NCBI GenBank assembly: GCA_035627515.1
Contig: DASPLQ010000012.1
Location: forward strand, 135,269 to 199,268
DNA: 64,000 bases
DNA from: Vitreimonas sp.
Lineage (GTDB): Bacteria > Patescibacteriota > Microgenomatia > UBA1400 > PJMF01
Reading direction: 5' to 3'
Made by a program: the position numbers and the translations under genes. How positions within the stretch are numbered: the first letter of the stretch is position 1; each line of letters begins with the position of its first letter. The notes beneath the pieces were generated by a model. The model saw nothing but the letters and a program-made list of their open reading frames with translations. It ran no database searches and was not told the origin of the DNA. Shown piece by piece: positions 2,885-25,158 of this stretch.

Positions 2885-3325
2885 ATGATTGGCAAATCGC
2901 ACGAACAAAATCCATTCTTACCTTCAGGCATCTTTGGTAATGGCGAAGGCGGGTTACCCCCATCTCTGCCAACGTGGCGAAGAGAATTTAGTATCACTCG
3001 TTTGGACCATAAGGATTGGAGTAAACAGACTCAACTTTTGAATGATTTAATCAAAGAAGTTCTCAGTATAAAACCTCTCCCTTCCAATCTCACTGAAGTC
3101 TTAAATAAGACTCTACAAAATATTACTACCGATGTTGGTCGATTTAAAATTCCCGGTAAAACAGCTACTTCTATCGACTTAGTTGTTGCCAATCCCAGCA
3201 GCGAAAAAGGTTTAAGTACTACCACCTATAAGTTTGGTAATTTAGGTGCCTTAGCCAAAGAGATAGCTATTAACAAAGATACTCAGTTTTATCTCGACAT
3301 TACCTACGTCGACGATAATTCCTAA
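2885..3325 (+). CDS. Hypothetical protein
   Basis: A 146-aa ORF with no recognisable motifs. Confidence 0.4.
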   Translation: MIGKSHEQNPFLPSGIFGNGEGGLPPSLPTWRREFSITRLDHKDWSKQTQLLNDLIKEVLSIKPLPSNLTEVLNKTLQNITTDVGRFKIPGKTATSIDLVVANPSSEKGLSTTTYKFGNLGALAKEIAINKDTQFYLDITYVDDNS

Positions 3326-3352
3326 GTCAGGATAATTGAACAATAAAGCTCA

Positions 3353-4237
3353 CTAGCTTTCAATTAATTCCACACAGTTCTCGAGCAATGAGATGACCGT
3401 GATCGGTCCTACCCCACCTGGCACGGGCGTGATAAAGCTGGCTTTGGGAGCTACGGTGGCGAAATCGACATCTGGTTTGGGTTCGCCCACATCTACAACT
3501 ACCACCCCATTCTTGACTAAATCGCCAATGATTAAACCTTGGCGACCGGTAGCGGAAACGATGATGTCAGCGTCTAAAAGGTACTTCTTTTGCTCAATTC
3601 GTTGATTTAATTCCTTGCTACCAATCATTTCTACTTGGAAACCTTGGTTTTTGAATTCGTAGAACAGAGGTTTACCTAAAATATCAGACTTGCCTAAAAT
3701 AATGACTTTTCTATCTGGAGCGAGTTGTTGGGATTGGCGAAGAATCTCTAAGACTGCTTTGGCAGTTGCTGGTAAGACTTTTTTTTCCTGTTTCCAGGTG
3801 TTGTTTTCAACCGCTGCTAACGTGGCGGGATGCAAGCCATCTACATCTTTTTTCTCATCGAGCCGAGACACTAAACTCGTCCACCAGGCTTGAAAGTCTT
3901 CATTACTCTTCTCTGCTCCTGCGAGTTCCAACCACCGGGCTTTGCCTGGTTTTTGAATAATGATACCCGTGACAGTGGGATCTTGGTTTAAGGCCTCAAT
4001 CTCGGCTTGAACTGGCGCAATATCATCTGCCATGGAGTGGGTGTAAACTTCATAGATCATCCCCACCCGCTCAGCGGCCTCTTGCTTGAGGCGGGTATAC
4101 AGGACACTACCAGAATCTTCGGTAAATAAAATGGCCGCAATCTTGAGGTGGATATTTTGCTCTCTTAAAGCCGCTACACGCGTTTTGAGTTGCGCTTCTT
4201 TAGCTTGAGCAGCCTGGTTGCCATCAAAAATAATCAT
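3353..4237 (-). CDS. folD: Bifunctional methylenetetrahydrofolate dehydrogenase/cyclohydrolase
   Basis: MIIFDGNQAAQAKEAQLKTRV… together with the SATGR, VDVG and VPGGVGPIT motifs. Confidence 0.9.
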   Translation of the reverse strand: MIIFDGNQAAQAKEAQLKTRVAALREQNIHLKIAAILFTEDSGSVLYTRLKQEAAERVGMIYEVYTHSMADDIAPVQAEIEALNQDPTVTGIIIQKPGKARWLELAGAEKSNEDFQAWWTSLVSRLDEKKDVDGLHPATLAAVENNTWKQEKKVLPATAKAVLEILRQSQQLAPDRKVIILGKSDILGKPLFYEFKNQGFQVEMIGSKELNQRIEQKKYLLDADIIVSATGRQGLIIGDLVKNGVVVVDVGEPKPDVDFATVAPKASFITPVPGGVGPITVISLLENCVELIES

Positions 4238-8121: not shown

Positions 8122-9009
8122 TTAGACCATGTGACGAACCTCATCTCGCTCAAATTGATCTGCTGTATCAATCTTACCCAACAGATTATGAATTAATTGA
8201 GGCGGAAATTGGCACTCAACTACCAACGCATGAAAAATATCAGGGTCATAGATCCAATCTAAGTGATTGGTAATTAACTTGATATCTTCTCCCTCATGAT
8301 TTGTCAAAAAAGCTTGATAGGCAAAAGCTGAGGCTAAGTTAGCAAAATCTAGACCTGGACCTTTATTTAAAAAAGGAATTTGATCTATTAACTTTACTAC
8401 GTCCTCTTTATTATTTGTTGGTCGTTCAAAAGCGTCAAAAATTATAGCCGCTGGAAGCTTATTAAAATGAGCTTGAACTTTAAATGAGGTTGATTCTTCA
8501 ATCTCTCCTATGGAAGCGGTAATTCCCACATGCCATTGAATAATGAAATTAGTCATGCAGTACATGAATAAGTAATTGGGCTGTTCATTCCCAATTAAGC
8601 TCTCTAAACGCGCCATCACCTGCGTATCACGTACTGGTTGTTCCTGAGGAAGTAACTCCTGAAATTTTCGTTTCTGACGATGCAAAGGGTACGTCAAACC
8701 TAACTCTAAATGTTCTTGTGTTTGAGCATATGATGTAACTACGTCAATGCTGACTACTAATGCTTCTTTATCCGAACCAGTGGCTTCCAACTTTTTACGA
8801 ATCAATCGGTTCTTATCAGCTGCTACTTTGGTAGGATCATTATCTTCTAATTCCGGTTGAATATTCTCTGGATCAAAACTATTAATAGGCAGAAGTGCTG
8901 TGCCTTGATTAATAACTTTGTCTACTCCATTAGCTTTGCTCTCAGAACTGCTCGCCAAAAACACTTTAGCAATTTTATAGGTTCGTAATTTTTCAGCTAA
9001 ACTACTCAT
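8122..9009 (-). CDS. Hypothetical protein (295 aa)
   Basis: A long clean ORF with no recognisable family. Confidence 0.45.
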   Translation of the reverse strand: MSSLAEKLRTYKIAKVFLASSSESKANGVDKVINQGTALLPINSFDPENIQPELEDNDPTKVAADKNRLIRKKLEATGSDKEALVVSIDVVTSYAQTQEHLELGLTYPLHRQKRKFQELLPQEQPVRDTQVMARLESLIGNEQPNYLFMYCMTNFIIQWHVGITASIGEIEESTSFKVQAHFNKLPAAIIFDAFERPTNNKEDVVKLIDQIPFLNKGPGLDFANLASAFAYQAFLTNHEGEDIKLITNHLDWIYDPDIFHALVVECQFPPQLIHNLLGKIDTADQFERDEVRHMV

Positions 9010-16409: not shown

Positions 16410-17138
16410 ATGTTAAAACTACATTCTTTACCACTCTTTTTTTTACTCCTGAGCTTGAATGTAACTGGGTTGGGAATGGTATCTGCCTTCACTCCTGCTC
16501 CCATTTGGGCCCAAACACCCTCGCCTGCAGCTGAATCCACCACTCAAAAACTTAAAGAACGTATTGAAAAAGTCGTTGAAGAAAAACGCGACCAAGTGAA
16601 AGGCGTTCTCGACGAAATCACCGGCAAAAAACGTGGCTTTATTGGGGAAGTCCAGCGCGTCTCAGCTGAATCAATTACCCTCAAAACTAACAAAGGTACG
16701 ACCATTCTCCCGCTGAGTGAGAGTATGAAATTATCCAAAAAAAATCGTGTCATCAAGTATGAAGATATCGCGATTGGTGACTGGGTAATTGTAATTGGTG
16801 GCAACGCTGATGATGACTTTGTCCCTGAACACATTATGGTCTCGGCTACTTCTCTTCGGCCTACGCCTAAAACCGTAATGGTCGGGAGCGTGGAAGCCAT
16901 CACCAAAACTGAGCTTACCGTCTCTCCCCGCTCCGGAGCAGAGTCACAAGATTTTACGCTCGCCAAAGGGACCGTTTATCAAGATTTAGAAGGCACGACC
17001 GCCGCGTTGAAAAACTTTACCACTGATATTCAAGTGTTAGTGATTGGCAAACAAACAACAAATGGTTGGGAAGCCGTAGTGGTCAAGTCATTAGCCCCCT
17101 TGAACACTCCTAGCCCTTCACCTAAAGCTAAACCATGA
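16410..17138 (+). CDS. Secreted hypothetical protein
   Basis: A signal peptide (…LGMVSAFTPAPIWAQ) and Pro-rich ends. Confidence 0.5.
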   Translation: MLKLHSLPLFFLLLSLNVTGLGMVSAFTPAPIWAQTPSPAAESTTQKLKERIEKVVEEKRDQVKGVLDEITGKKRGFIGEVQRVSAESITLKTNKGTTILPLSESMKLSKKNRVIKYEDIAIGDWVIVIGGNADDDFVPEHIMVSATSLRPTPKTVMVGSVEAITKTELTVSPRSGAESQDFTLAKGTVYQDLEGTTAALKNFTTDIQVLVIGKQTTNGWEAVVVKSLAPLNTPSPSPKAKP

Positions 17139-18193
17139 GAATTGACCAGCTTCAAAAAAATTTAAGTGCTCAAGAAGGCATTTTATTAGCCAATCCCAGC
17201 GATGTGAGTTACTTCACCGGTTTTGAGATCTTAGTTCCAGAAGAGCGAGAGGCTTTACTGCTGATAACTGCTGAGGCTAGCATCTTATTTCATGCTACTT
17301 TCTCACCTGTCCCCAATCAGCCAGGAGTGATAGCTTTATCAGGTTGCAGCCCGGAAAAGCTACTTGGTCATTTTCAAAATTACCCACCCCTCAAAGCGAT
17401 TCGTAAAATCTCGGTTGATACCACCAGCTTATTTGTAAATGAGTATCAAGCTCTCGAAAAAGCCGGCTTAGAACTCTCACCCTTTGACCGCAACCTTAGC
17501 TGGAGTATCCGAGCCATTAAAGATGCTCAAGAAATTGAGCTCCTCAAAAAAGCCGGTGAAATTGCCCAACAGACGTATCAGGCCGTCATCACTCAGCTCA
17601 AGCCTGGTATTACTGAAGAAACGGTCAAAGAATGGTTAGAACTTGAGCTGCGACGACGCGGTGCTCAACGCCCCGCCTTTCCCACCATTGTCTGTTTTGG
17701 TGCTCACGGTGCTCTACCTCATCACCAACCCACTTCACAGGCATTACAGCCTGAAACACCAGTCCTGATTGACTTTGGCGCCACCTACCAAGGCTACCGC
17801 TCCGATATGACACGAAGCTTTTGGTTTGGAACTCAGCCCTCTGCTGAATTTCAAAAAGTAGAAAAACTCGTCACCTCAGCATATGACGCCGCACTTGCCC
17901 TCATCAAAGATCGAAATGCTACCACGATAGTGACAGCCAGCCAACTCGACCAGGCTGCCCGGACACTCATTGACCAAGCCGGATATGGCAAGGCGTTTAT
18001 TCATACCACTGGGCATGGTGTCGGCTTAGACATCCATGAACAACCGTCGTTATATCAAACAAATACCACTCGTCTCCAGCCGGGAATGGTGATTACTATT
18101 GAACCGGGCATTTATTTGGTGGATAATTTTGGCTATCGCTACGAAAACACTGTTTTAATTACCGAAAAAAGCGCTCAAGAACTGACACTCTAA
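17135..18193 (+). CDS. M24-family Xaa-Pro aminopeptidase
   Basis: HTTGHGVGLDIHEQP, ITIEPGIY and DNFGYRYENTV motifs. Confidence 0.8.
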   Translation: MRIDQLQKNLSAQEGILLANPSDVSYFTGFEILVPEEREALLLITAEASILFHATFSPVPNQPGVIALSGCSPEKLLGHFQNYPPLKAIRKISVDTTSLFVNEYQALEKAGLELSPFDRNLSWSIRAIKDAQEIELLKKAGEIAQQTYQAVITQLKPGITEETVKEWLELELRRRGAQRPAFPTIVCFGAHGALPHHQPTSQALQPETPVLIDFGATYQGYRSDMTRSFWFGTQPSAEFQKVEKLVTSAYDAALALIKDRNATTIVTASQLDQAARTLIDQAGYGKAFIHTTGHGVGLDIHEQPSLYQTNTTRLQPGMVITIEPGIYLVDNFGYRYENTVLITEKSAQELTL

Positions 18194-18867: not shown

Positions 18868-19185
18868 ATGGGTATGTTTAACCTTTCACACTCTCCCGCC
18901 GAAAAAAAACTCCTCCAAGCACTTTTGACGCTGAAAACGGAAGCTGAAGTTAAAGATTTTCTGGTTGATTTACTCACCCCAGCTGAGTTAGAAGAGTTTG
19001 TCAAACGCTTCCAAATGGCTACTCTATTGTGGACCACCAAAAAATCATACTTGGAAATAGCTCAGGAAGTAGATACCAGTACTACCACGGTCACGCGCGT
19101 GGCCCGTTTCTTATTTAAAGAACCTTTCCAAGGTTACATGACAGCGCTCAAACGGTTATATCCAAAAATCAAACCTGCGCGGTAA
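18868..19185 (+). CDS. TrpR-related YerC/YecD-family DNA-binding protein
   Basis: LLTPAELEEFVKRFQ…SYLEIAQEVDTSTTTVTRVAR is an HTH of the YerC/YecD type. Confidence 0.6.
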   Translation: MGMFNLSHSPAEKKLLQALLTLKTEAEVKDFLVDLLTPAELEEFVKRFQMATLLWTTKKSYLEIAQEVDTSTTTVTRVARFLFKEPFQGYMTALKRLYPKIKPAR

Positions 19186-19192
19186 TTTTACC

Positions 19193-19630
19193 TCAAGCTA
19201 ATTTAAGGTGAGTTTTAATGGTTGTGATCTCATGGTCATGTTCATCGAGTTTATCGCGGTGTTTGGTGAGTTGGTGCACAATCACCGTTTGCTCTTCACG
19301 AATTGCCTGTAATTCCCCCATCACATCGGCAAAACGACCAATGGTTTCGGATCGAAAAGCCCTCATTTCGGATTTAAAGCTTTCTGCATCTGATTTAACT
19401 TCACTTATTTCTGTTTTTAATTCAGTACATAATTCTTGCAACTCTTTTTTAGTGGCAAACGTAGCTTTATTGATCTTATTCTGTTCATCAAACATCCGCT
19501 GGACACCCGTCAGAATGGCTTCGCTCATTTCAGCGCCAAAAGCAGTAAAACGCTCATCCAGAATTTCCTTGAGACGTTGCTCAGTGACATACTTAGTACG
19601 GGCAGTGGAAGATGATTTCTTGGTGGTCAT
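19193..19630 (-). CDS. Coiled-coil hypothetical protein
   Basis: A heptad-rich charged sequence with no catalytic motif. Confidence 0.45.
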   Translation of the reverse strand: MTTKKSSSTARTKYVTEQRLKEILDERFTAFGAEMSEAILTGVQRMFDEQNKINKATFATKKELQELCTELKTEISEVKSDAESFKSEMRAFRSETIGRFADVMGELQAIREEQTVIVHQLTKHRDKLDEHDHEITTIKTHLKLA

Positions 19631-19753
19631 CTGTCTTATTATAGCTAGAATTCTTTACTCTAGCTTTACTATAAGTAAGAAAGATTGATCAACTTTTTTG
19701 GCTCCAATTTAAGTCAAGTAGCAGTTAACTAAATATGTTATTGTATTAACATA

Positions 19754-19781
19754 TTGACATACAAATATTTCCAATTATAAT
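19754..19781 (+). promoter_or_regulatory. Sigma70-like promoter TTGACA-16-TATAAT. The predicted start site is ~7 nt downstream, which places the leader ORF ATG at or near the 5-prime end.
   Basis: Exact consensus hexamers are seen at 19754-59 and 19776-81. Confidence 0.4.
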
Positions 19782-19788
19782 ACACTTC

Positions 19789-19863
19789 ATGGTCAAGATA
19801 ACTAGTTCATCAATTGTTCATCATCACTCCCCTCTTTTCGCCGCGGGAGTTATTTTCGTATAA
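19789..19863 (+). CDS. Leader peptide MVKITSSSIVHHHSPLFAAGVIFV (24 aa) with three consecutive His codons (CAT CAT CAC)
   Basis: Translated directly. Its stop lies 23 nt before a terminator hairpin. His codons sit at 19819-19827. Confidence 0.5.
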   Translation: MVKITSSSIVHHHSPLFAAGVIFV

Positions 19864-19911
19864 AGTAAAATTAAAACACAGTACACCCCGCGCCGAGCGC
19901 GGGGTTTTTTT
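19826..19911 (+). promoter_or_regulatory. Transcription attenuator with four segments: 1 = ACUCCC (19826-31, overlapping the last His codon), 2 = GCGGGAGU (19843-50), 3 = CCCCGCG (19886-92), 4 = CGCGGGG (19898-904), followed by U7 (19905-11)
   Basis: Alternative pairings 1:2, 2:3 (CGCGGG:CCCGCG) and 3:4 (a 7-bp all-GC stem plus UUUUUUU) are seen in the sequence, 16 nt before the HAL start. Confidence 0.55.
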
Positions 19912-19927
19912 GTGCTGGAAAGGAAAA

Positions 19928-21445
19928 ATGATTATAAAAATAACTGGTAAAAACTTAACTATTGAACAAGTTAAAGCTGTAGCTCGTGACGGAGCCCAAG
20001 TCAAAATTGATCCCGAAGCTCTTAAACAGGTCGGTAAGGGTCGGAAAATCTTGGAATCATATGTGGCACGAGGAGAAAAAATCTATGGTGTTACCACCGG
20101 CTTTGGTGATTTTTCCAAAGTCTTTATTTCTCCGGTTGATGCTGCGCAACTGCAAACAAATTTGATTTTGAGCCACAATGCTGGGGTAGGTGAGCCGGTG
20201 CCAGAAGATGTCGTCCGCGCTACCATGCTCGCTCGAGCCAATTTCTTAGCCAGCGGCATGTCTGGCTGTCGTCCAATAGTGGTGGAAACATTAGTAGCAG
20301 CTCTCAACAACGGCCTCTACCCCTTTGTTCCCCAAAAGGGTTCTGTTGGCGCCAGTGGCGACCTAGCACCGTTAGCAGCTTTGGCTGCATGTTTGATGGG
20401 ACAAGGTCAAGCACTTATTAATAACCAAAAGGTGCCCTCTGTAGTGGCTTTACAAAAAATTGGCCTCCAACCCCTAGAACTGTCTTTTAAAGAAGGATTG
20501 GCATTGATTAATGGCGATACTTTGATGGTAGGTTATGCTGCCCTTCTGGTCTATGACGCACAACAACTATGCAAACTCTCGGACCTGGCAGTGAGCATGA
20601 CTCTTGAAAGCATTGTGGGCGTGATGGAAGCCTTTGATGACCGCTTACAAACCGCCCGCGGCTTTAAAGGCCAAGTACAAGCCGCTCAGAATATTCGCAC
20701 TCTCACTACTGGCAGTCAAATTCTCAACGGAGATCGTCAACGCATACAAGATAGTTATGTTATTCGATGTAGTCCAGTTATTCTCGGCGCTTCCCGCGAA
20801 GCCGTTGAGTTTGTGCGCCGTCAAACTGAGCTTGAGCTCAACGGAGCTTGCGACAACCCACTGGTATTTTTGGATGATGAAGTGGTGTTAGCCGGTGGCA
20901 ATTTTCATGGTCAACCGCTAGCTCTTCCGCTCGATTTTTTAAAGGTAGCAGTTTCGGAGCTTGCTAGCTCTTCAGAACGCCGCATGGAACGAATGCTCAA
21001 CAAGACATATTCTGGCTTACCAGCATTTTTAATTGAAAATGGTGGTCTAAACTCAGGCTTGATGGTGCCTCAATATACCGCTGCAGGCTTGATTAACCTT
21101 AATAAGGGCTTGAGCTGGCCTAATAGTGTGGATTCCACTCCGCTCTGCGCAGGCCAAGAAGACCACGTCTCGATGGGCACTAACTCAGCTCTCACAGCCT
21201 TTGAGGTTATTCAAAACACTCAATACGTAATAGCCATCGAACTCCTCATTGCTGCTCAGGCTTTGGAATTTCGCGAGCAACTGCCGAGCCCTGTCATTCA
21301 AAAAGTGAAAGCTTTGATCAGATCTAAAGTTCCCAAACTCACCCAGGACACTTCCTTGAACCCTGCCATTGAGATTCTGAGAGCTTGGGTCAAAGACGAA
21401 AAAATTATGAGGGTAATTGAAGTAGAGATTGGACCTTTGTTATGA
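19928..21445 (+). CDS. hutH: Histidine ammonia-lyase family MIO enzyme (HAL/PAL/aminomutase family)
   Basis: GSVGASGDLAPLA contains the Ala-Ser-Gly MIO triad. YGVTTGFGDF and SHNAGVGE motifs are also present. The start is at MIIKITGK. Confidence 0.8.
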   Translation: MIIKITGKNLTIEQVKAVARDGAQVKIDPEALKQVGKGRKILESYVARGEKIYGVTTGFGDFSKVFISPVDAAQLQTNLILSHNAGVGEPVPEDVVRATMLARANFLASGMSGCRPIVVETLVAALNNGLYPFVPQKGSVGASGDLAPLAALAACLMGQGQALINNQKVPSVVALQKIGLQPLELSFKEGLALINGDTLMVGYAALLVYDAQQLCKLSDLAVSMTLESIVGVMEAFDDRLQTARGFKGQVQAAQNIRTLTTGSQILNGDRQRIQDSYVIRCSPVILGASREAVEFVRRQTELELNGACDNPLVFLDDEVVLAGGNFHGQPLALPLDFLKVAVSELASSSERRMERMLNKTYSGLPAFLIENGGLNSGLMVPQYTAAGLINLNKGLSWPNSVDSTPLCAGQEDHVSMGTNSALTAFEVIQNTQYVIAIELLIAAQALEFREQLPSPVIQKVKALIRSKVPKLTQDTSLNPAIEILRAWVKDEKIMRVIEVEIGPLL

Positions 21446-22482
21446 AAAGGTATCAAGTTTGTTGTGCTGAATGCTCAGGTATCTATGAGGATCAGTGGTG
21501 GCTTTGCCCCAACTGTAACGGTAGTTTAATTATTCGTTACAACTCAGTGGAGGTTAAACCACAACTCCCAGCTTCCCTTTCTCTAGTCGACAAGTTAGGT
21601 GAAGGTCAAACTCCTCTCATATTTCTGGATTCACTTTCTCGCCAGTTGGGAGCACATATTTGGGCGAAGTGTGAGTTTCAAAACCCCACAGGTTCATTCA
21701 AAGATCGGGGCTCTGTAGTGGAAATAGCTAAAGCACTAGAGCTAAACAAAGCAGGTGTAGTTTGCGCTTCAACCGGCAACATGGCTGCTAGCTTAGCCGC
21801 CTATGCTGCCCGTAACCAACTCAAGTGTGTGGTGGTTGTGCCAGCCACCACCCCTGAGTCAAAACTGCAACAAGCGGTGGCATATGGAGCGTATCTGGAA
21901 ACCGTAGATGGTACCTATGATGATTGTGTGGCACACGCTCAAGGCTTAGCGATAAAGGGTAATTATTTTCTATGTGGAGACTACGTACTCAGGCGCGAGG
22001 GTCAAAAAAGCCTAGGGTGGGAACTAACAGGTAAAGCCTTTAGTGATATCGTCGTTCCTGTGGGTAATGGCACAGTGGGAATAGCAGTGATGCAAGGTTT
22101 AAGTGAGGCTGAGCCTTCTACGATGGCACGTTTCGTGGGTGTGCAAGCCATTACTGCTAATCCCATTGCTCAAGCCTGGCAAACAAAAACAACCATTAAG
22201 CCTCAACACAGTACTCTGACTATTGCTTCTGCTTTCAATGTGGGAAATCCACTCGATGGTAATTTGACGCTTCAATGGTTAGCTAAAACTGCGGGAACAA
22301 TGACAACGGTGAGCGATCAAGAAATTATTGCTGCTCAACAATTACTTGCTCAAACTGAAGGTTTATATGTAGAAAGTGCAGCTGCCAGCACAGTCGCTGC
22401 TCTTTTCAAAATGAGATCACAACTCAGTAATAAAAAAATAGCCCTGATTTTAACAGGCAGTGGGTTGAAGGAAAGGAGGTGA
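21442..22482 (+). CDS. Threonine-synthase-like PLP-dependent (fold type II) enzyme with an N-terminal Cys4 zinc ribbon
   Basis: CAECSG…CPNCNG ribbon. The PLP-lysine motif FKDRGS is present. A 4-nt ATGA overlap links it to the HAL stop. Confidence 0.7.
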   Translation: MKRYQVCCAECSGIYEDQWWLCPNCNGSLIIRYNSVEVKPQLPASLSLVDKLGEGQTPLIFLDSLSRQLGAHIWAKCEFQNPTGSFKDRGSVVEIAKALELNKAGVVCASTGNMAASLAAYAARNQLKCVVVVPATTPESKLQQAVAYGAYLETVDGTYDDCVAHAQGLAIKGNYFLCGDYVLRREGQKSLGWELTGKAFSDIVVPVGNGTVGIAVMQGLSEAEPSTMARFVGVQAITANPIAQAWQTKTTIKPQHSTLTIASAFNVGNPLDGNLTLQWLAKTAGTMTTVSDQEIIAAQQLLAQTEGLYVESAAASTVAALFKMRSQLSNKKIALILTGSGLKERR

Positions 22483-22487
22483 TATAT

Positions 22488-22685
22488 ATGACAGAAAGAA
22501 TTATTTTTATTGACCGCATTCCCGATGGGGGCGCGCCAGTCATTACTAATGCTGCTGAGTTAGCTTACTTACTCGAAGAGCTAGCAGAAGACGCGACAGC
22601 ATCGGCTACCCAACCTCTCCCCCGCTTTATTGGAGAAGGTATAGGTGCACCGGAGTTTAAGGTGAAAGCGCCTAACGAGAAATAA
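22488..22685 (+). CDS. Small acidic hypothetical protein (65 aa) with a perfect SD, AAGGAGGTGA
   Basis: The SD AGGAGGT sits 7 nt before the ATG. The ORF follows the ThrC-like gene directly. A stable hairpin lies at 22695-22719. Confidence 0.5.
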   Translation: MTERIIFIDRIPDGGAPVITNAAELAYLLEELAEDATASATQPLPRFIGEGIGAPEFKVKAPNEK

Positions 22686-22758
22686 TTTTCTCAAGCCGGG
22701 AGCTTGATCACCTCCCGGCAGGGATCTCTAACAGTGTTACAATCAAAAAAGCCAAGCT

Positions 22759-22893
22759 ATGCCAGCCTCCCTCACTATTCTCTATCCGCTTCATCCAGAT
22801 CGCTGGACAGAATATAAAGCTTTGCGCTTGGAAAAAGAGTTGAATATGAATGGGCAGTTCTATGACTCAGTGTTAATGGAGTTATTTATATGA
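22759..22893 (+). CDS. Micro-ORF (44 aa, MPASLTILYPLHPDRWTEYKALRLEKELNMNGQFYDSVLMELFI) with an ATGA overlap onto the next gene
   Basis: Translated manually. The stop overlaps the start of the M29-like gene, which indicates translational coupling. It is below the 60-aa ORF track cutoff. Confidence 0.35.
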   Translation: MPASLTILYPLHPDRWTEYKALRLEKELNMNGQFYDSVLMELFI

Positions 22894-23894
22894 AGGTGGT
22901 CGAGAAACTAAGTGACGCAGAAAAAATTCGTGACTTAACCACAAGAGAACGTGAGTTGGGTTTAAAAATTTTGCAGACTAACCTTGCCTACCAACCCGGC
23001 GAGCGAATCCTGATCGTGACTGACACTCAGAAGCGTGATCAGGCGGCTGCGGTGTGGTTTGAGTCGGCTAAATTGTTACCCAAGCTCGGTGGTTTAGAAC
23101 TAATCACCATCGATGACATGCTGATCAATGGTGAAGAGCCACCAGCTGAAGTGATTGCAGCGGGCAAAACAGCTCACATTTTATTGCTTCACACCACCAA
23201 GTCTTTGACCCATACCGGTGTCAGCAAGACCGCTCGTGCTGGCGGGGCTAAGGTGGCTAGTTTGCCTGGTGTGTCATATGAAATTATGATGCAGACTTTG
23301 ACGTTAGAATATCAGCCCATTCGCGAGCTCGGTGAGCAACTTAAAGCTGTGGTAGAAAAAGGCACCACGCTGACGGTTACTTCTCCAGCTGGGACGCACC
23401 TGACCGCTAACATCCGGCAAAACTGGGTGGAAAATGACTGCGGCTTTGTGGCGCCAGGTGAGATCACCAATTTACCCGCCGGCGAGATCTTTTTTGCCCC
23501 TCTCGAAGGGACCACCACTGGGACCTGGGTGGTAGATGGCTCGATTGCCAGTGACACGCTTGATGAGCCGATTGTGATTACCATTGAGGCTGGCCGGGCG
23601 GTGAATATTGAGGGTGGCGCCGCAGCCGGGAGGCTGCAAGCCACCCTAGAAAAAGTAGGACCACTGGCGTTTAGTGTCGCTGAAATTGGCATTGGTACCA
23701 ATAGCTCCGCGTCAGGAACGGCATCATTGATTGAAGCCGAAAAAGCTGCCGGCACTGCCCATCTCGCCCTCGGCAACAACAGCGTCATTGGTGGCAGCAT
23801 CAACGTCCCCGTTCATATCGATGGTGTGACGCTCTCACCTACTATCGCAGTCGATGGTCGAATCATCTTAGAAAATCAACGTTTTATCATTTAA
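22890..23894 (+). CDS. M29 (aminopeptidase T/AmpS)-like aminopeptidase
   Basis: Family-level resemblance. GTAHLALGN and VHIDGV correspond to the conserved His and His-x-Asp metal ligands. The length is ~334 aa. Confidence 0.45.
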   Translation: MKVVEKLSDAEKIRDLTTRERELGLKILQTNLAYQPGERILIVTDTQKRDQAAAVWFESAKLLPKLGGLELITIDDMLINGEEPPAEVIAAGKTAHILLLHTTKSLTHTGVSKTARAGGAKVASLPGVSYEIMMQTLTLEYQPIRELGEQLKAVVEKGTTLTVTSPAGTHLTANIRQNWVENDCGFVAPGEITNLPAGEIFFAPLEGTTTGTWVVDGSIASDTLDEPIVITIEAGRAVNIEGGAAAGRLQATLEKVGPLAFSVAEIGIGTNSSASGTASLIEAEKAAGTAHLALGNNSVIGGSINVPVHIDGVTLSPTIAVDGRIILENQRFII

Positions 23895-23916
23895 AATACA
23901 CATACTTAAGGAATCT

Positions 23917-25158
23917 ATGCAAAATCAAGTTCAAACTTTAAAAGGCTTCCGGGATCTCTTGCCTGCTGACAAGCGCAAGCGCGATTACGTAGCCGCTAAA
24001 ATCAAAACTGTCTTTGAACGCTTCGGCTTCGAACCACTCGAAACGCCGACCTTGGAATATGCCTCGCTATTGCTCGGCAAGTATGGTGAAGAAGCTGATA
24101 AACTTGTTTACACTTTTGAAGATCGTGGTGAGCGCCAAATTGGGTTGCGCTACGACCAAACCGTGCCCACTGCCCGCGTGCTGGCTCAATATCAAAATGA
24201 TCTCCCCCGTTACTTCCGCCGTTATCAAATCCAAAATGTCTTCCGCGCCGACAAGCCACAAAAAGGTCGCTTCCGTGAGTTTACACAATGTGACTGCGAC
24301 ATTTTTGGCAGTACCGCCTCCCTCGCTGATGCAGAAATTTTAGCCGTTTATTATGCTGTCTATAAAGACCTCGGTATCACTTCCATTCAAATTCAAATCA
24401 ATGATCGTCAAACATTGCTGTCTACTTTATCGCCTTTTGCTACCGACCAAGTTTCGGTTTTTTCACTAGTTCAGTCGATCGACAAATTAGACAAACAAAC
24501 AGCCGATGAAGTCGCTACCGAACTAACAGCGAAAGGACTGAGTCTAGAAGCTTCCAAACAAGTTTTGTCCGAAATTGAAAAAGCTGACATGTCAGCTAAT
24601 TTAAGTGAAATTGTCGACAATGCTATCAAACTCGGTGTAGCTCGCGAAGCACTCGTCTTTAACCCGAAATTGGCACGTGGTTTGGATTATTATACCGGCT
24701 TGATTTTTGAAGGTCGGATTCCTGAATATGCCGTCGGTTCGGTAGGCGGCGGTGGCCGTTATGACAAATTAGTCGGCGAGTTATCCGGTTTAGAAATGCC
24801 GGCTGTGGGCTTTGGAATTGGCTTTGATCGAACGGTAGAAGCTGCTGATGAGCTCGGGCTGATCCCTGCTGAAAATATGGGGACGCAAGTTTTGGTAACT
24901 GTCTTTGATAACGCTTATCTCTCGGATTCTTTAACCACTGCCAACCAATTAAGAACCGCGGGTGTGAAAGTCGAGCTCTACCCTGCTGTAGATAAACTAG
25001 CCAAACAATTCAAACTCGCTGACCAAAAAAACATCCCTTGGGTGGTGATCATTGGAGAGGCTGAAGCGGCTGACAATAAAGTCACGCTGAAAAATATGAA
25101 GACTGGTGAGCAGCAATTGATGTCAATGGATGAAGTTGTCGGTTTGGTATTAGGATAG
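23917..25158 (+). CDS. hisS: Histidyl-tRNA synthetase
   Basis: Class II motifs (GLRYDQTVP, FRADKPQKGRFREF, GGGGRYDKL) and a C-terminal anticodon-binding domain. Confidence 0.9.
   Translation: MQNQVQTLKGFRDLLPADKRKRDYVAAKIKTVFERFGFEPLETPTLEYASLLLGKYGEEADKLVYTFEDRGERQIGLRYDQTVPTARVLAQYQNDLPRYFRRYQIQNVFRADKPQKGRFREFTQCDCDIFGSTASLADAEILAVYYAVYKDLGITSIQIQINDRQTLLSTLSPFATDQVSVFSLVQSIDKLDKQTADEVATELTAKGLSLEASKQVLSEIEKADMSANLSEIVDNAIKLGVAREALVFNPKLARGLDYYTGLIFEGRIPEYAVGSVGGGGRYDKLVGELSGLEMPAVGFGIGFDRTVEAADELGLIPAENMGTQVLVTVFDNAYLSDSLTTANQLRTAGVKVELYPAVDKLAKQFKLADQKNIPWVVIIGEAEAADNKVTLKNMKTGEQQLMSMDEVVGLVLG

Follow-up and report, generated by a model that had tools for sequence, protein, structure and literature searches.

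A histidine ammonia-lyase and a threonine synthase-like enzyme under predicted histidine starvation control in Patescibacteria

The window analyzed here, a stretch of 64,000 nucleotides from contig DASPLQ010000012.1 (assembly GCA_035627515.1, positions 135,269 to 199,268 of the forward strand), contains an operon that joins a histidine ammonia-lyase (HAL) with a threonine synthase (ThrC)-like enzyme and a histidyl-tRNA synthetase (HisRS). The operon is preceded by a candidate HisR operator and a predicted histidine attenuator, its characteristic proteins are purged of histidine, and its core recurs in relatives. We regard it as an amino acid starvation operon of unprecedented content, with a realistic chance that a new route to histidine is hidden in it. 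An initial annotation, made from the sequence of the window alone, had listed a histidine scavenging module in an auxotroph among the possible explanations; this is the reading that fits best, and we hold it tentatively.

The operon and its conserved core

Six open reading frames (ORFs), all on the plus strand, fill positions 19928-25158. The first (19928-21445, plus strand) encodes a HAL of 505 amino acids (aa), a HutH-type enzyme of the 4-methylideneimidazole-5-one (MIO) family according to hidden Markov models (HMMs) and active-site alignment. Its start was placed at the ATG at 19928; a longer ORF beginning with the TTG at 19814 would traverse the leader and the terminator described below. 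The assignment of the initial annotation to PF00221 holds (E = 1.6e-175), and the protein exceeds the cutoffs of both the hutH equivalog TIGR01225 (581.4 bits; cutoff, 539.15) and NF006871 (609; cutoff, 524). In the alignment with the Pseudomonas putida enzyme (1gkm), the ASG tripeptide of MIO and residues Y53, H83, N195, Q277, Y280, R283, F329, and E414 are all kept. H83 and E414 are the histidine-specific residues, and Tyr53, Tyr280, and Arg283 are catalytic, as in known HAL structures. Judged by HMM scores and active-site residues, the enzyme is a canonical, bona fide HutH. The suggestion that it might be an aminomutase or act on another substrate found no support, given the HutH-level scores, the presence of all histidine-specific residues, and scores far below the aminomutase and ergothionase-type models.

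The second gene (21442-22482, plus strand) encodes a ThrC-like fold type II pyridoxal phosphate (PLP) enzyme of 346 aa that matches PALP (E = 1.6e-74) and TIGR00260. It is 35 to 40% identical to solved ThrCs and matches their fold, and the PLP-lysine motif GSFKDRG is invariant in the ThrC-like proteins. However, in the window protein STGNM and CGDYxxRREGQ take the places of the STGNT and NSxNPxRxEGQ of canonical ThrCs. The canonical motifs were present in 72 of 72 canonical ThrCs sampled, whereas STGNM plus xGDYxxR(R/K)EGQ was found in all members of a separate clade defined here, the GNM/GDY clade, which is common to bacteria of the Candidate Phyla Radiation (CPR), DPANN, and other archaea. 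We take the canonical motifs to be the holders of the O-phosphohomoserine phosphate, as in the Thermus thermophilus ThrC complex; on that assumption, the substrate of the ThrC-like enzyme is likely smaller or different. The archaeal-type Zn ribbon attributed to it is present as an N-terminal CxxC...CxxC but dispensable: most relatives, at about 305 aa, do not have it, and in others the cysteines are gone. A metagenome scan with the ThrC-like alignment recovered no close relative; canonical ThrC dominated its matches, and the TGSFKDRG pattern was too generic.

The last gene, hisS (23917-25158, plus strand), encodes a HisRS of 413 aa. Its assignment holds, with 399.9 bits to TIGR00442 (cutoff, 286.75) and a score of 176 with the HisZ model, below the cutoff of 271.65. 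With the PF03129 anticodon-binding domain present along with the catalytic core, the product is, by its domains, a full class II synthetase and not HisZ.

The layout and junctions given by the initial annotation were borne out, except that one ORF, of 44 aa, is doubtful as a gene (see below). HAL and the ThrC-like gene overlap by an ATGA at 21442-45, and the 44-aa ORF overlaps the following M29-like gene in the same manner at 22890-93. Five nucleotides separate the stop codon of the ThrC-like gene from the start of a 65-aa ORF, a 73-nt spacer lies between the 65-aa and the 44-aa ORFs, and the gap between the M29-like gene and hisS is 22 nt.

Conservation was studied in 17 distinct Patescibacteria loci, the window counted among them. 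The ThrC-like gene follows HAL directly in all 17, at identities of 43 to 70%, and the two genes overlap or lie no more than 10 nt apart. Fifteen of the 17 loci have a YerC/HisR-type (TrpR-like) gene adjacent to the pair, and a leader with His codons plus a terminator is likewise found in 15. For its part, hisS ends the operon in five loci (the window, L004, L006, L162, and L165), and at least seven operons lack it (L003, L164, L167, L168, L170, L171, and L174). The conserved core consists of the HisR-like gene, the His leader, HAL, and the ThrC-like gene. Gene neighborhood in relatives had been chosen beforehand as a point on which the proposal could fail, and the core does colocalize, with the HAL/ThrC-like pair in every locus and hisS in five. 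The idea that all six genes form a conserved unit was not borne out, the 65-aa ORF, the 44-aa ORF, and the M29-like gene being lineage specific.

Predicted control by histidine scarcity

A gene for a repressor of the YerC/HisR family (TrpR-like; 105 aa) lies upstream of the operon (18868-19185, plus strand; PF01371, E = 7.7e-18), and its score with TIGR02531 yecD_yerC is above the cutoff (47.1 versus 42.2). Neither this gene nor the operator was mentioned in the initial annotation. HisR/YerC is a histidine-corepressed repressor of his biosynthesis and uptake genes, with the published motif cacTTTA-N6-TAAAgtg (PMC9413887). The candidate HisR operator of the window, the inverted repeat ATGTTA-TTGTAT-TAACAT (19735-19752), agrees with this motif in architecture. 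It abuts the -35 hexamer of a sigma-70 promoter, TTGACA-16-TATAAT (19754-19781, plus strand), which matches the consensus at 12 of 12 positions. A perfect RTGTTA-N6-TAACAY occurs at the promoter in window/L001, L003, L005, L164, L165, and L172, and related forms occur in L002, L167, L168, L170, and L171; the operator lies at the -35 hexamer in the clade of the window and over the -10 hexamer in a Roizmanbacteria-like clade. Given its above-cutoff score and the palindrome at the promoter, the protein is predicted to act as a HisR/YerC repressor of the operon. Between its gene and the promoter, the window has a 145-aa coiled-coil-like ORF on the minus strand (19193-19630), with no solid family match; in most relatives the regulator gene directly abuts the promoter.

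Downstream of the promoter, a leader peptide ORF (19789-19863, plus strand; MVKITSSSIVHHHSPLFAAGVIFV, then a stop codon) contains three His codons at 19819-19827. It is followed by an intrinsic terminator (19885-19912, plus strand) with a 9-bp stem (8 GC pairs), a 3-nt loop, and a tract of seven T's. The segment CGCGGG (19842-19847, plus strand) would serve as the antiterminator arm, being complementary to CCCGCG (19887-19892) in the 5' arm of the terminator. The mRNA is probably leaderless, as far as its sequence tells, with the leader peptide translated without a Shine-Dalgarno (SD) sequence. An Rfam scan of the entire window at the gathering threshold returned two tRNAs only and neither a His_leader nor a T-box. 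The distance from the -10 hexamer to the leader ATG, 7 nt (window 19776-19791), is identical in L164.

The His-run leader with its terminator is a separate ORF in 12 loci, the window included. Three loci (L004, L169, and L174) have the His run at the C terminus of the HisR-like ORF, ahead of the terminator, and there the repressor's own C-terminal codons seem to double as the attenuator leader. These ORFs end in NSHHHAAFPNGKGLR (L004, 7587-7910) and EEHHTHIPPARA (L169, 6057-6386), or have LNHHTHQSS shortly before the end (L174, 6017-6349), and in each an intrinsic terminator lies directly behind.

Each leader has, 3 to 5 codons past the His run, a G-rich segment able to pair with the terminator's 5' arm; the leader stop codon lies on or beside this segment. 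The attenuator was examined by folding the RNA with the ribosome footprint masked at different positions. In L002, L003, L005, L164, L168, and L171, the antiterminator formed when the ribosome was stalled at the His codons and the terminator when it stood at the stop codon. An inverted attenuator, reading through at high histidine, was rejected in view of these classical folds and of the position of the stop codon on or beside the antiterminator arm in every leader. The regulatory codon run, the terminator, the antiterminator, and their conservation are those of a leader peptide transcription attenuator, as which the element is predicted to act.

Both sensors would lead to expression of the operon when histidine is scarce, since HisR is expected to behave as the published HisR and the attenuator to follow the classical logic. 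The single histidine-attenuated transcription unit proposed earlier is supported by the tight same-strand junctions, the promoter, the His leader, and the terminator.

Histidine depletion, host, and accessory genes

The proteins of the operon are purged of histidine. In the window, HAL has 3 histidines in 505 residues, the ThrC-like enzyme has 3 in 346, the 65-aa ORF has none, and HisRS has 0 in 413, against a background of 305 in 12,598 residues (2.42%) in the 34 other ORFs of the window. The depletion of the operon is significant (Fisher p = 8e-8), and HisRS gives p = 7.6e-5 versus the same background. Similar differences were found in 11 relatives, where the operon genes have 0.2 to 0.67% His and the flanks 1.5 to 2.65%. 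Histidine-free examples in relatives include AT541 (0/541), a phosphoribosyltransferase (PRTase)-like ORF of L171 (0/379), a substrate-binding protein (0/321), and HisRSs (0/402 and 0/404). All 98 HALs of the Patescibacteria clade hold 2 or 3 histidines, those retained being H83, the H of GGNFH, and the H of QEDH (H83, H327, and H413 in the window), whereas the next relatives of HAL, at 46 to 54% identity, have 7 to 16, one truncated sequence excepted. Among 120 ThrC-like relatives, 75 have no histidine and 35 have one (0.165% overall), compared with 1.24% in canonical ThrC and 1.14% in those members of the ThrC-like clade that are not linked to HAL.

Depletion of the cognate amino acid is known in enzymes required during starvation for that amino acid (PMC4209129), and the present operon offers a clean natural case, including a histidyl-tRNA synthetase without histidine. 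Such a purge pays only if the proteins are made when histidine is nearly absent, and a catabolic HAL would then be without substrate; forward degradation is therefore unlikely as the selected function. Thus, the paradox pointed out in the initial annotation, that a HAL should be induced on histidine starvation, is real and stronger than had been noted, with a HisR-type repressor and extreme histidine depletion now added to an attenuator that proves to be conserved.

The public record labels the 1.41-Mb source contig "Vitreimonas sp.," an alphaproteobacterium, and its gene content, synteny, and close homologues are those of Patescibacteria. The window shares synteny with a genome of Pacebacteria, and its close relatives all belong to Pacebacteria, Roizmanbacteria, Gottesmanbacteria, Levybacteria, or the "Patescibacteria group." The label is therefore probably wrong, and the host is a CPR/Microgenomates-type Patescibacteria.

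The remaining ORFs of the window operon lie between the ThrC-like gene and hisS. The 65-aa acidic ORF (22488-22685, plus strand), termed p65, is a lineage-specific small ORF. Its place behind the ThrC-like gene is taken in most relatives by a small ORF of low conservation, commonly starting, like p65, with M-x-E-R/K-I/L, so that the position is loosely conserved and no defined family can be assigned. A search of a database of 5.8 billion proteins returned no homologue of p65 besides the query itself. A scan for the motif GAPE gave one extra locus and an alignment of the small ORFs then added L172; the motif EGxGAPExK is thus found in three loci (p65 of the window, L169, and L172). The "perfect" SD sequence attributed to p65 falls inside the conserved C-terminal codons of ThrC (K-E-R-R-stop).

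The hairpin reported in the 73-nt spacer is indeed there (22695-22719, plus strand; 8 bp, GC-rich, with no U tract), and its folding stability (-19.1 kcal/mol, z = -1.42) is not significant alone. It was considered as an internal terminator and rejected, the U tract lacking and the z score being -1.4. The 44-aa ORF (p44; 22759-22893, plus strand), initially described as a translationally coupled micro-ORF, is probably not a gene and is better viewed as belonging to the 5' region of the M29-like gene: it has no SD sequence and no family match, was not called in the source assembly, and occurs in none of the relatives examined.

The M29-like gene (22890-23894, plus strand) encodes a putative short M29/NicX-fold metallohydrolase of 334 aa. 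Its score with PF02073 (Peptidase_M29) is just under the gathering score (26.9 versus 27 bits), PF26233 (NicX) is precomputed for it, and its best PDB match is the NicX dioxygenase 7cn3 (E = 2e-5), with the H/D of VHID aligned. The E of AEIGIG, the H of AHLALG, and the H/D of VHID are at what we take to be the M29 ligand positions. The designation M29 aminopeptidase stands at the limit of the HMM, and the gene is neither conserved, being absent from the operon in all relatives examined, nor histidine depleted (6/334). Because both it and p44 lack the depletion bias, they are marked as late or peripheral additions.

Other operons carry additions of their own, mostly histidine related. In L004, a tRNA-His gene (GTG; 8276-8349) follows the HisR-like gene and stands directly upstream of HAL, in the same orientation, and may be cotranscribed with HAL, the ThrC-like gene, and hisS. 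L169 (9196-9942), L172 (5800-6471), and L173 (5783-6451), the closest relatives of the window, contain divergent, His-poor genes of the ATP phosphoribosyltransferase family (HisG-like), which score 30 to 74.5 against a hisG cutoff of 75.75 and have no other his genes nearby. An extended operon, L165 (9110-16456; identical to L166), reads HAL, ThrC-like gene, 62-aa ORF, a protein with a phosphoenolpyruvate-utilizer domain, 285-aa ORF, HutU, M24 peptidase, 140-aa hydrophobic ORF, a histidine racemase-like protein (0 His), and HisRS (0 His); its middle genes are less depleted of histidine. No Pfam or NCBIfam match was found for the 285-aa ORF, and no family match for the 140-aa ORF, which resembles a membrane protein. 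Further additions are two class I/II aminotransferases (L003), a LOG-like gene plus a 379-aa ORF in which we read a PRTase-like phosphoribosyl pyrophosphate-loop motif, with no family match (L171), an SsuA-type ABC importer (L167), and an FAD/NAD(P) oxidoreductase (L174). When the window was searched for HisG-like, HutU, racemase-like, aminotransferase, LOG/PRTase, substrate-binding protein, and FAD oxidoreductase genes, none was present.

A PepQ/Xaa-Pro-type M24 peptidase gene is found close upstream in the window (17135-18193), followed by GNAT and tRNA-Ala genes. An M24 peptidase gene also lies directly 5' of the HAL promoter in L006 and within the operon in L165, and it may be a recurrent peptide-scavenging neighbor.

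Possible function and relation to known systems

Five loci (L168, L170, L171, L003, and L005) have a trpS-trpB2 pair next to the histidine module. In L168, a leader with Trp codons (MFNITLSNWQNWQPRIWEGDIFVS, then a stop codon) and a terminator (3135-3454) precede the trpS-trpB2 operon. The tryptophanyl-tRNA synthetase has no Trp in 348 residues, and TrpB2 has one in 428 (L168) or none in 398 (L170). From its sequence, this looks like a Trp-attenuated indole salvage module back-to-back with the histidine module. By analogy with this combination of a synthetase and a PLP salvage enzyme under cognate attenuation, HAL and the ThrC-like enzyme would be the salvage part of the histidine module.

Since both sensors are predicted to open the operon at histidine scarcity, its core enzymes would have to work with essentially no histidine to degrade. 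We tentatively favor, at somewhat less than an even chance, a histidine salvage module in which HAL runs in the aminating direction with the ThrC-like enzyme as its partner. Low free histidine would release HisR from the promoter, and ribosomes stalling at the His codons would let transcription read through the terminator. HAL would then aminate a scavenged imidazole-acrylate precursor (urocanate) to histidine, and the ThrC-like enzyme would supply the nitrogen by deaminating a small amino acid of the serine/threonine type. Abundant coinduced, His-free HisRS would capture histidine at a low steady-state level, pulling the unfavorable equilibrium. The accessory genes found elsewhere (peptidases, the histidine racemase-like gene, the ABC importer, aminotransferases, HisG-like and PRTase-like genes, and tRNA-His) could feed or extend this task. 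A broader idea, rather unlikely as it stands, is that CPR bacteria of the Microgenomates type have a new route to L-histidine, built on a HutH-type lyase recruited for biosynthesis from urocanate or a related imidazole acid and on a remodeled ThrC-like enzyme that provides the amino group, and extended in some lineages by HisG-like or PRTase-like genes, an oxidoreductase, or reversed Hut enzymes; such a route would be to histidine what TrpB-based indole salvage is to tryptophan.

Several points weigh against salvage. The amination of urocanate by HAL is unfavorable at physiological ammonium, the equilibrium constant of such MIO lyases being of the order of molar, and no urocanate transporter was identified. 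The ThrC-like chemistry is generic and not intrinsically linked to histidine, because the STGNM/GDY clade occurs without HAL in Micrarchaeota, Marsarchaeota, Nitrososphaerales, Jordarchaeia, and Gracilibacteria. In Micrarchaeota and Marsarchaeota (loci L007-L036), its members adjoin citrate synthase, aconitase, and an MQO-like FAD oxidoreductase and have a normal His content; these archaeal neighborhoods gave no sign of a histidine link and did not reveal the chemistry. The scheme leaves the HisG-like genes unexplained, the hutU gene of L165/L166 fits forward catabolism better, and the match of the ThrC-like enzyme to the threonine synthase model TIGR00260, although marginal, is above the cutoff (172.8 versus 167.1 bits). 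On the regulatory side, the antiterminator of the window has only 6 bp, and the minimum-energy fold retains the terminator in every state. The window attenuator can be likened in this respect to that of Escherichia coli trp, where the terminator is likewise the stabler of the alternative hairpins and kinetics decide between them.

HutH is a textbook enzyme of catabolism. The gene could serve the usual breakdown or homeostasis of histidine, its product running forward as part of an incomplete Hut pathway and the gene being merely cotranscribed with hisS, for example, to buffer a histidine overshoot after starvation-induced uptake. The hutH equivalog score, the retention of every histidine-specific residue, the clostridial HutHs that are the nearest non-CPR relatives of HAL, the genuine hutU of L165/L166 (830 bits), and a hisR paralogue clustered with hutH-hisT in Oscillibacter (PMC9413887) would all agree with this. 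Nevertheless, two independent sensors would turn the genes on at low histidine, HAL and its partner have, across about 100 lineages, lost their histidines down to the catalytic ones, and at least seven operons without hisS argue against hitchhiking on that gene. The initial annotation had regarded clustering with bona fide HutH alongside hutUIG genes elsewhere in the genome as counting against its proposal. The nearest non-CPR relatives are indeed clostridial HutHs; hutU was found only in the operon of L165/L166, 1 of the 17 loci. The reported absence of hutU, hutI, and hutG stands for the window, where a Pfam scan of ten of the largest ORFs (396 to 780 aa) gave neither hutU nor hutI, and for 15 of the 16 other loci. 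A catabolic hut operon has hutU, hutI, and hutG for company and is induced by histidine or urocanate through HutC or HutP; this is not the pattern seen here, and the regulators are of the biosynthesis type. Regulation and histidine depletion make the conversion of histidine to urocanate and NH3 unlikely as the physiological direction, and we consider the catabolic explanation improbable.

A similarly small chance is given to a pair acting on a look-alike of histidine (D-His, beta-His, N-methylated His, or an antimetabolite), which it would either convert to L-His or destroy as a competitor whose block of HisRS or of uptake mimics starvation. The starvation-type regulation, the histidine purge, the racemase-like gene of L165, the remodeled ThrC-like pocket, and the aminomutases and ergothionase-type lyases seen among the MIO enzymes in the PDB matches would suit such a role. 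However, the active site of HAL is indistinguishable from that of HutH, H83 and E414 included, its scores are far below those of the aminomutase and ergothionase-type models, and the gene contexts indicate no candidate compound. It is quite improbable that the second gene is a plain threonine synthase, with an accidental gene order of housekeeping genes sharing the hisS attenuator. The above-cutoff TIGR00260 score, the NCBI name "threonine synthase," and the PLP lysine and fold of solved ThrCs speak for it, whereas adjacency with overlapping stop and start codons is kept down to 43 to 50% identity in 17 of 17 loci, the enzyme is His-free only in the HAL-linked clade, the STGNT/NSxNPxR motifs of all 72 canonical ThrCs are replaced, and many operons lack hisS. 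Finally, the same strand and tight spacing, the small ORF after the ThrC-like gene in most relatives with its M-x-E-R-I/L start, and EGxGAPExK in three loci could be taken as signs that all six ORFs form one dedicated pathway, e.g., peptide-scaffolded or carrier protein chemistry on histidine. This has a very slim chance, as no relative examined has p44 or the M29-like gene, the latter is not His depleted, a homologue of p65 was not detected among 5.8 billion proteins, and no ligase or PEARL-type enzyme is present.

A HutH under predicted double histidine starvation control in about 100 lineages, stripped to 2 or 3 indispensable histidines, points to some other role for the enzyme there. If salvage were true, it would mean a new amino acid salvage chemistry, explain how His-auxotrophic ultrasmall symbionts survive, and suggest supplements for CPR cultivation such as urocanate or imidazole propionate. 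A search of the literature found no description of a HAL plus ThrC-like module, of hutH under starvation control, or of a His-free HAL or HisRS in CPR bacteria.

The HAL of the window belongs to the same family as HutH of P. putida (1B8F/1GKM), with the same MIO tripeptide and the same catalytic and histidine recognition residues. Known hutH genes respond to histidine or urocanate as inducers, through HutC or HutP, and are accompanied by hutU, hutI, and hutG, whereas the present one has a regulator of the histidine-corepressed type, a starvation attenuator, a ThrC-like partner, often hisS, and only 2 or 3 histidines in its product. Similarly, the ThrC-like enzyme shares its fold, GSFKDRG, and 35 to 40% identity with class I threonine synthases (Bacillus subtilis 6CGQ and T. 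thermophilus 1UIM) but differs in STGNM for STGNT, xGDYxxR(R/K) for NSxNPxR, the optional N-terminal Zn ribbon, and its separate clade. To our knowledge, no histidine salvage enzyme of the kind proposed here has been described. A close parallel is trpRBA of Chlamydia trachomatis (PMC7755916, PMC6504234), together with TrpB2, in which a symbiont with a reduced genome likewise combines a repressor, a fold type II PLP enzyme, and a scavenged precursor. The chemistry of Trp salvage, from indole and serine, is established, unlike that of the proposed histidine salvage, in which the amination by HAL would be uphill.

As for regulation, the attenuators of E. coli his, trp, and pheST and those for histidine in Firmicutes (PMC9413887) have a cognate codon run, alternative hairpins, and a placement of the stop codon like those seen here, and pheST, as the present operon, controls a synthetase. 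The attenuator described here differs in its score below the Rfam His_leader gathering threshold, a probably leaderless mRNA, and, in some relatives, a repressor tail as the leader, which makes these loci apparent examples of repressor genes with an attenuator leader encoded at their own 3' end. It also differs in its targets, a "catabolic" lyase and a ThrC-like enzyme instead of his biosynthetic genes. The HisR regulons of Firmicutes (PMC9413887) have a TrpR-family protein and a 6+6+6 palindrome with a TTA...TAA core, as here, and comprise his biosynthesis and uptake genes, whereas the target here is hutH/thrC-like; the hisR2-hutH-hisT cluster of Oscillibacter, the sole hint of a similar arrangement, is mentioned in the same work as an unexplained case. 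HisR and attenuators were reported there in different lineages, whereas in the operon described here both appear to act on one promoter.

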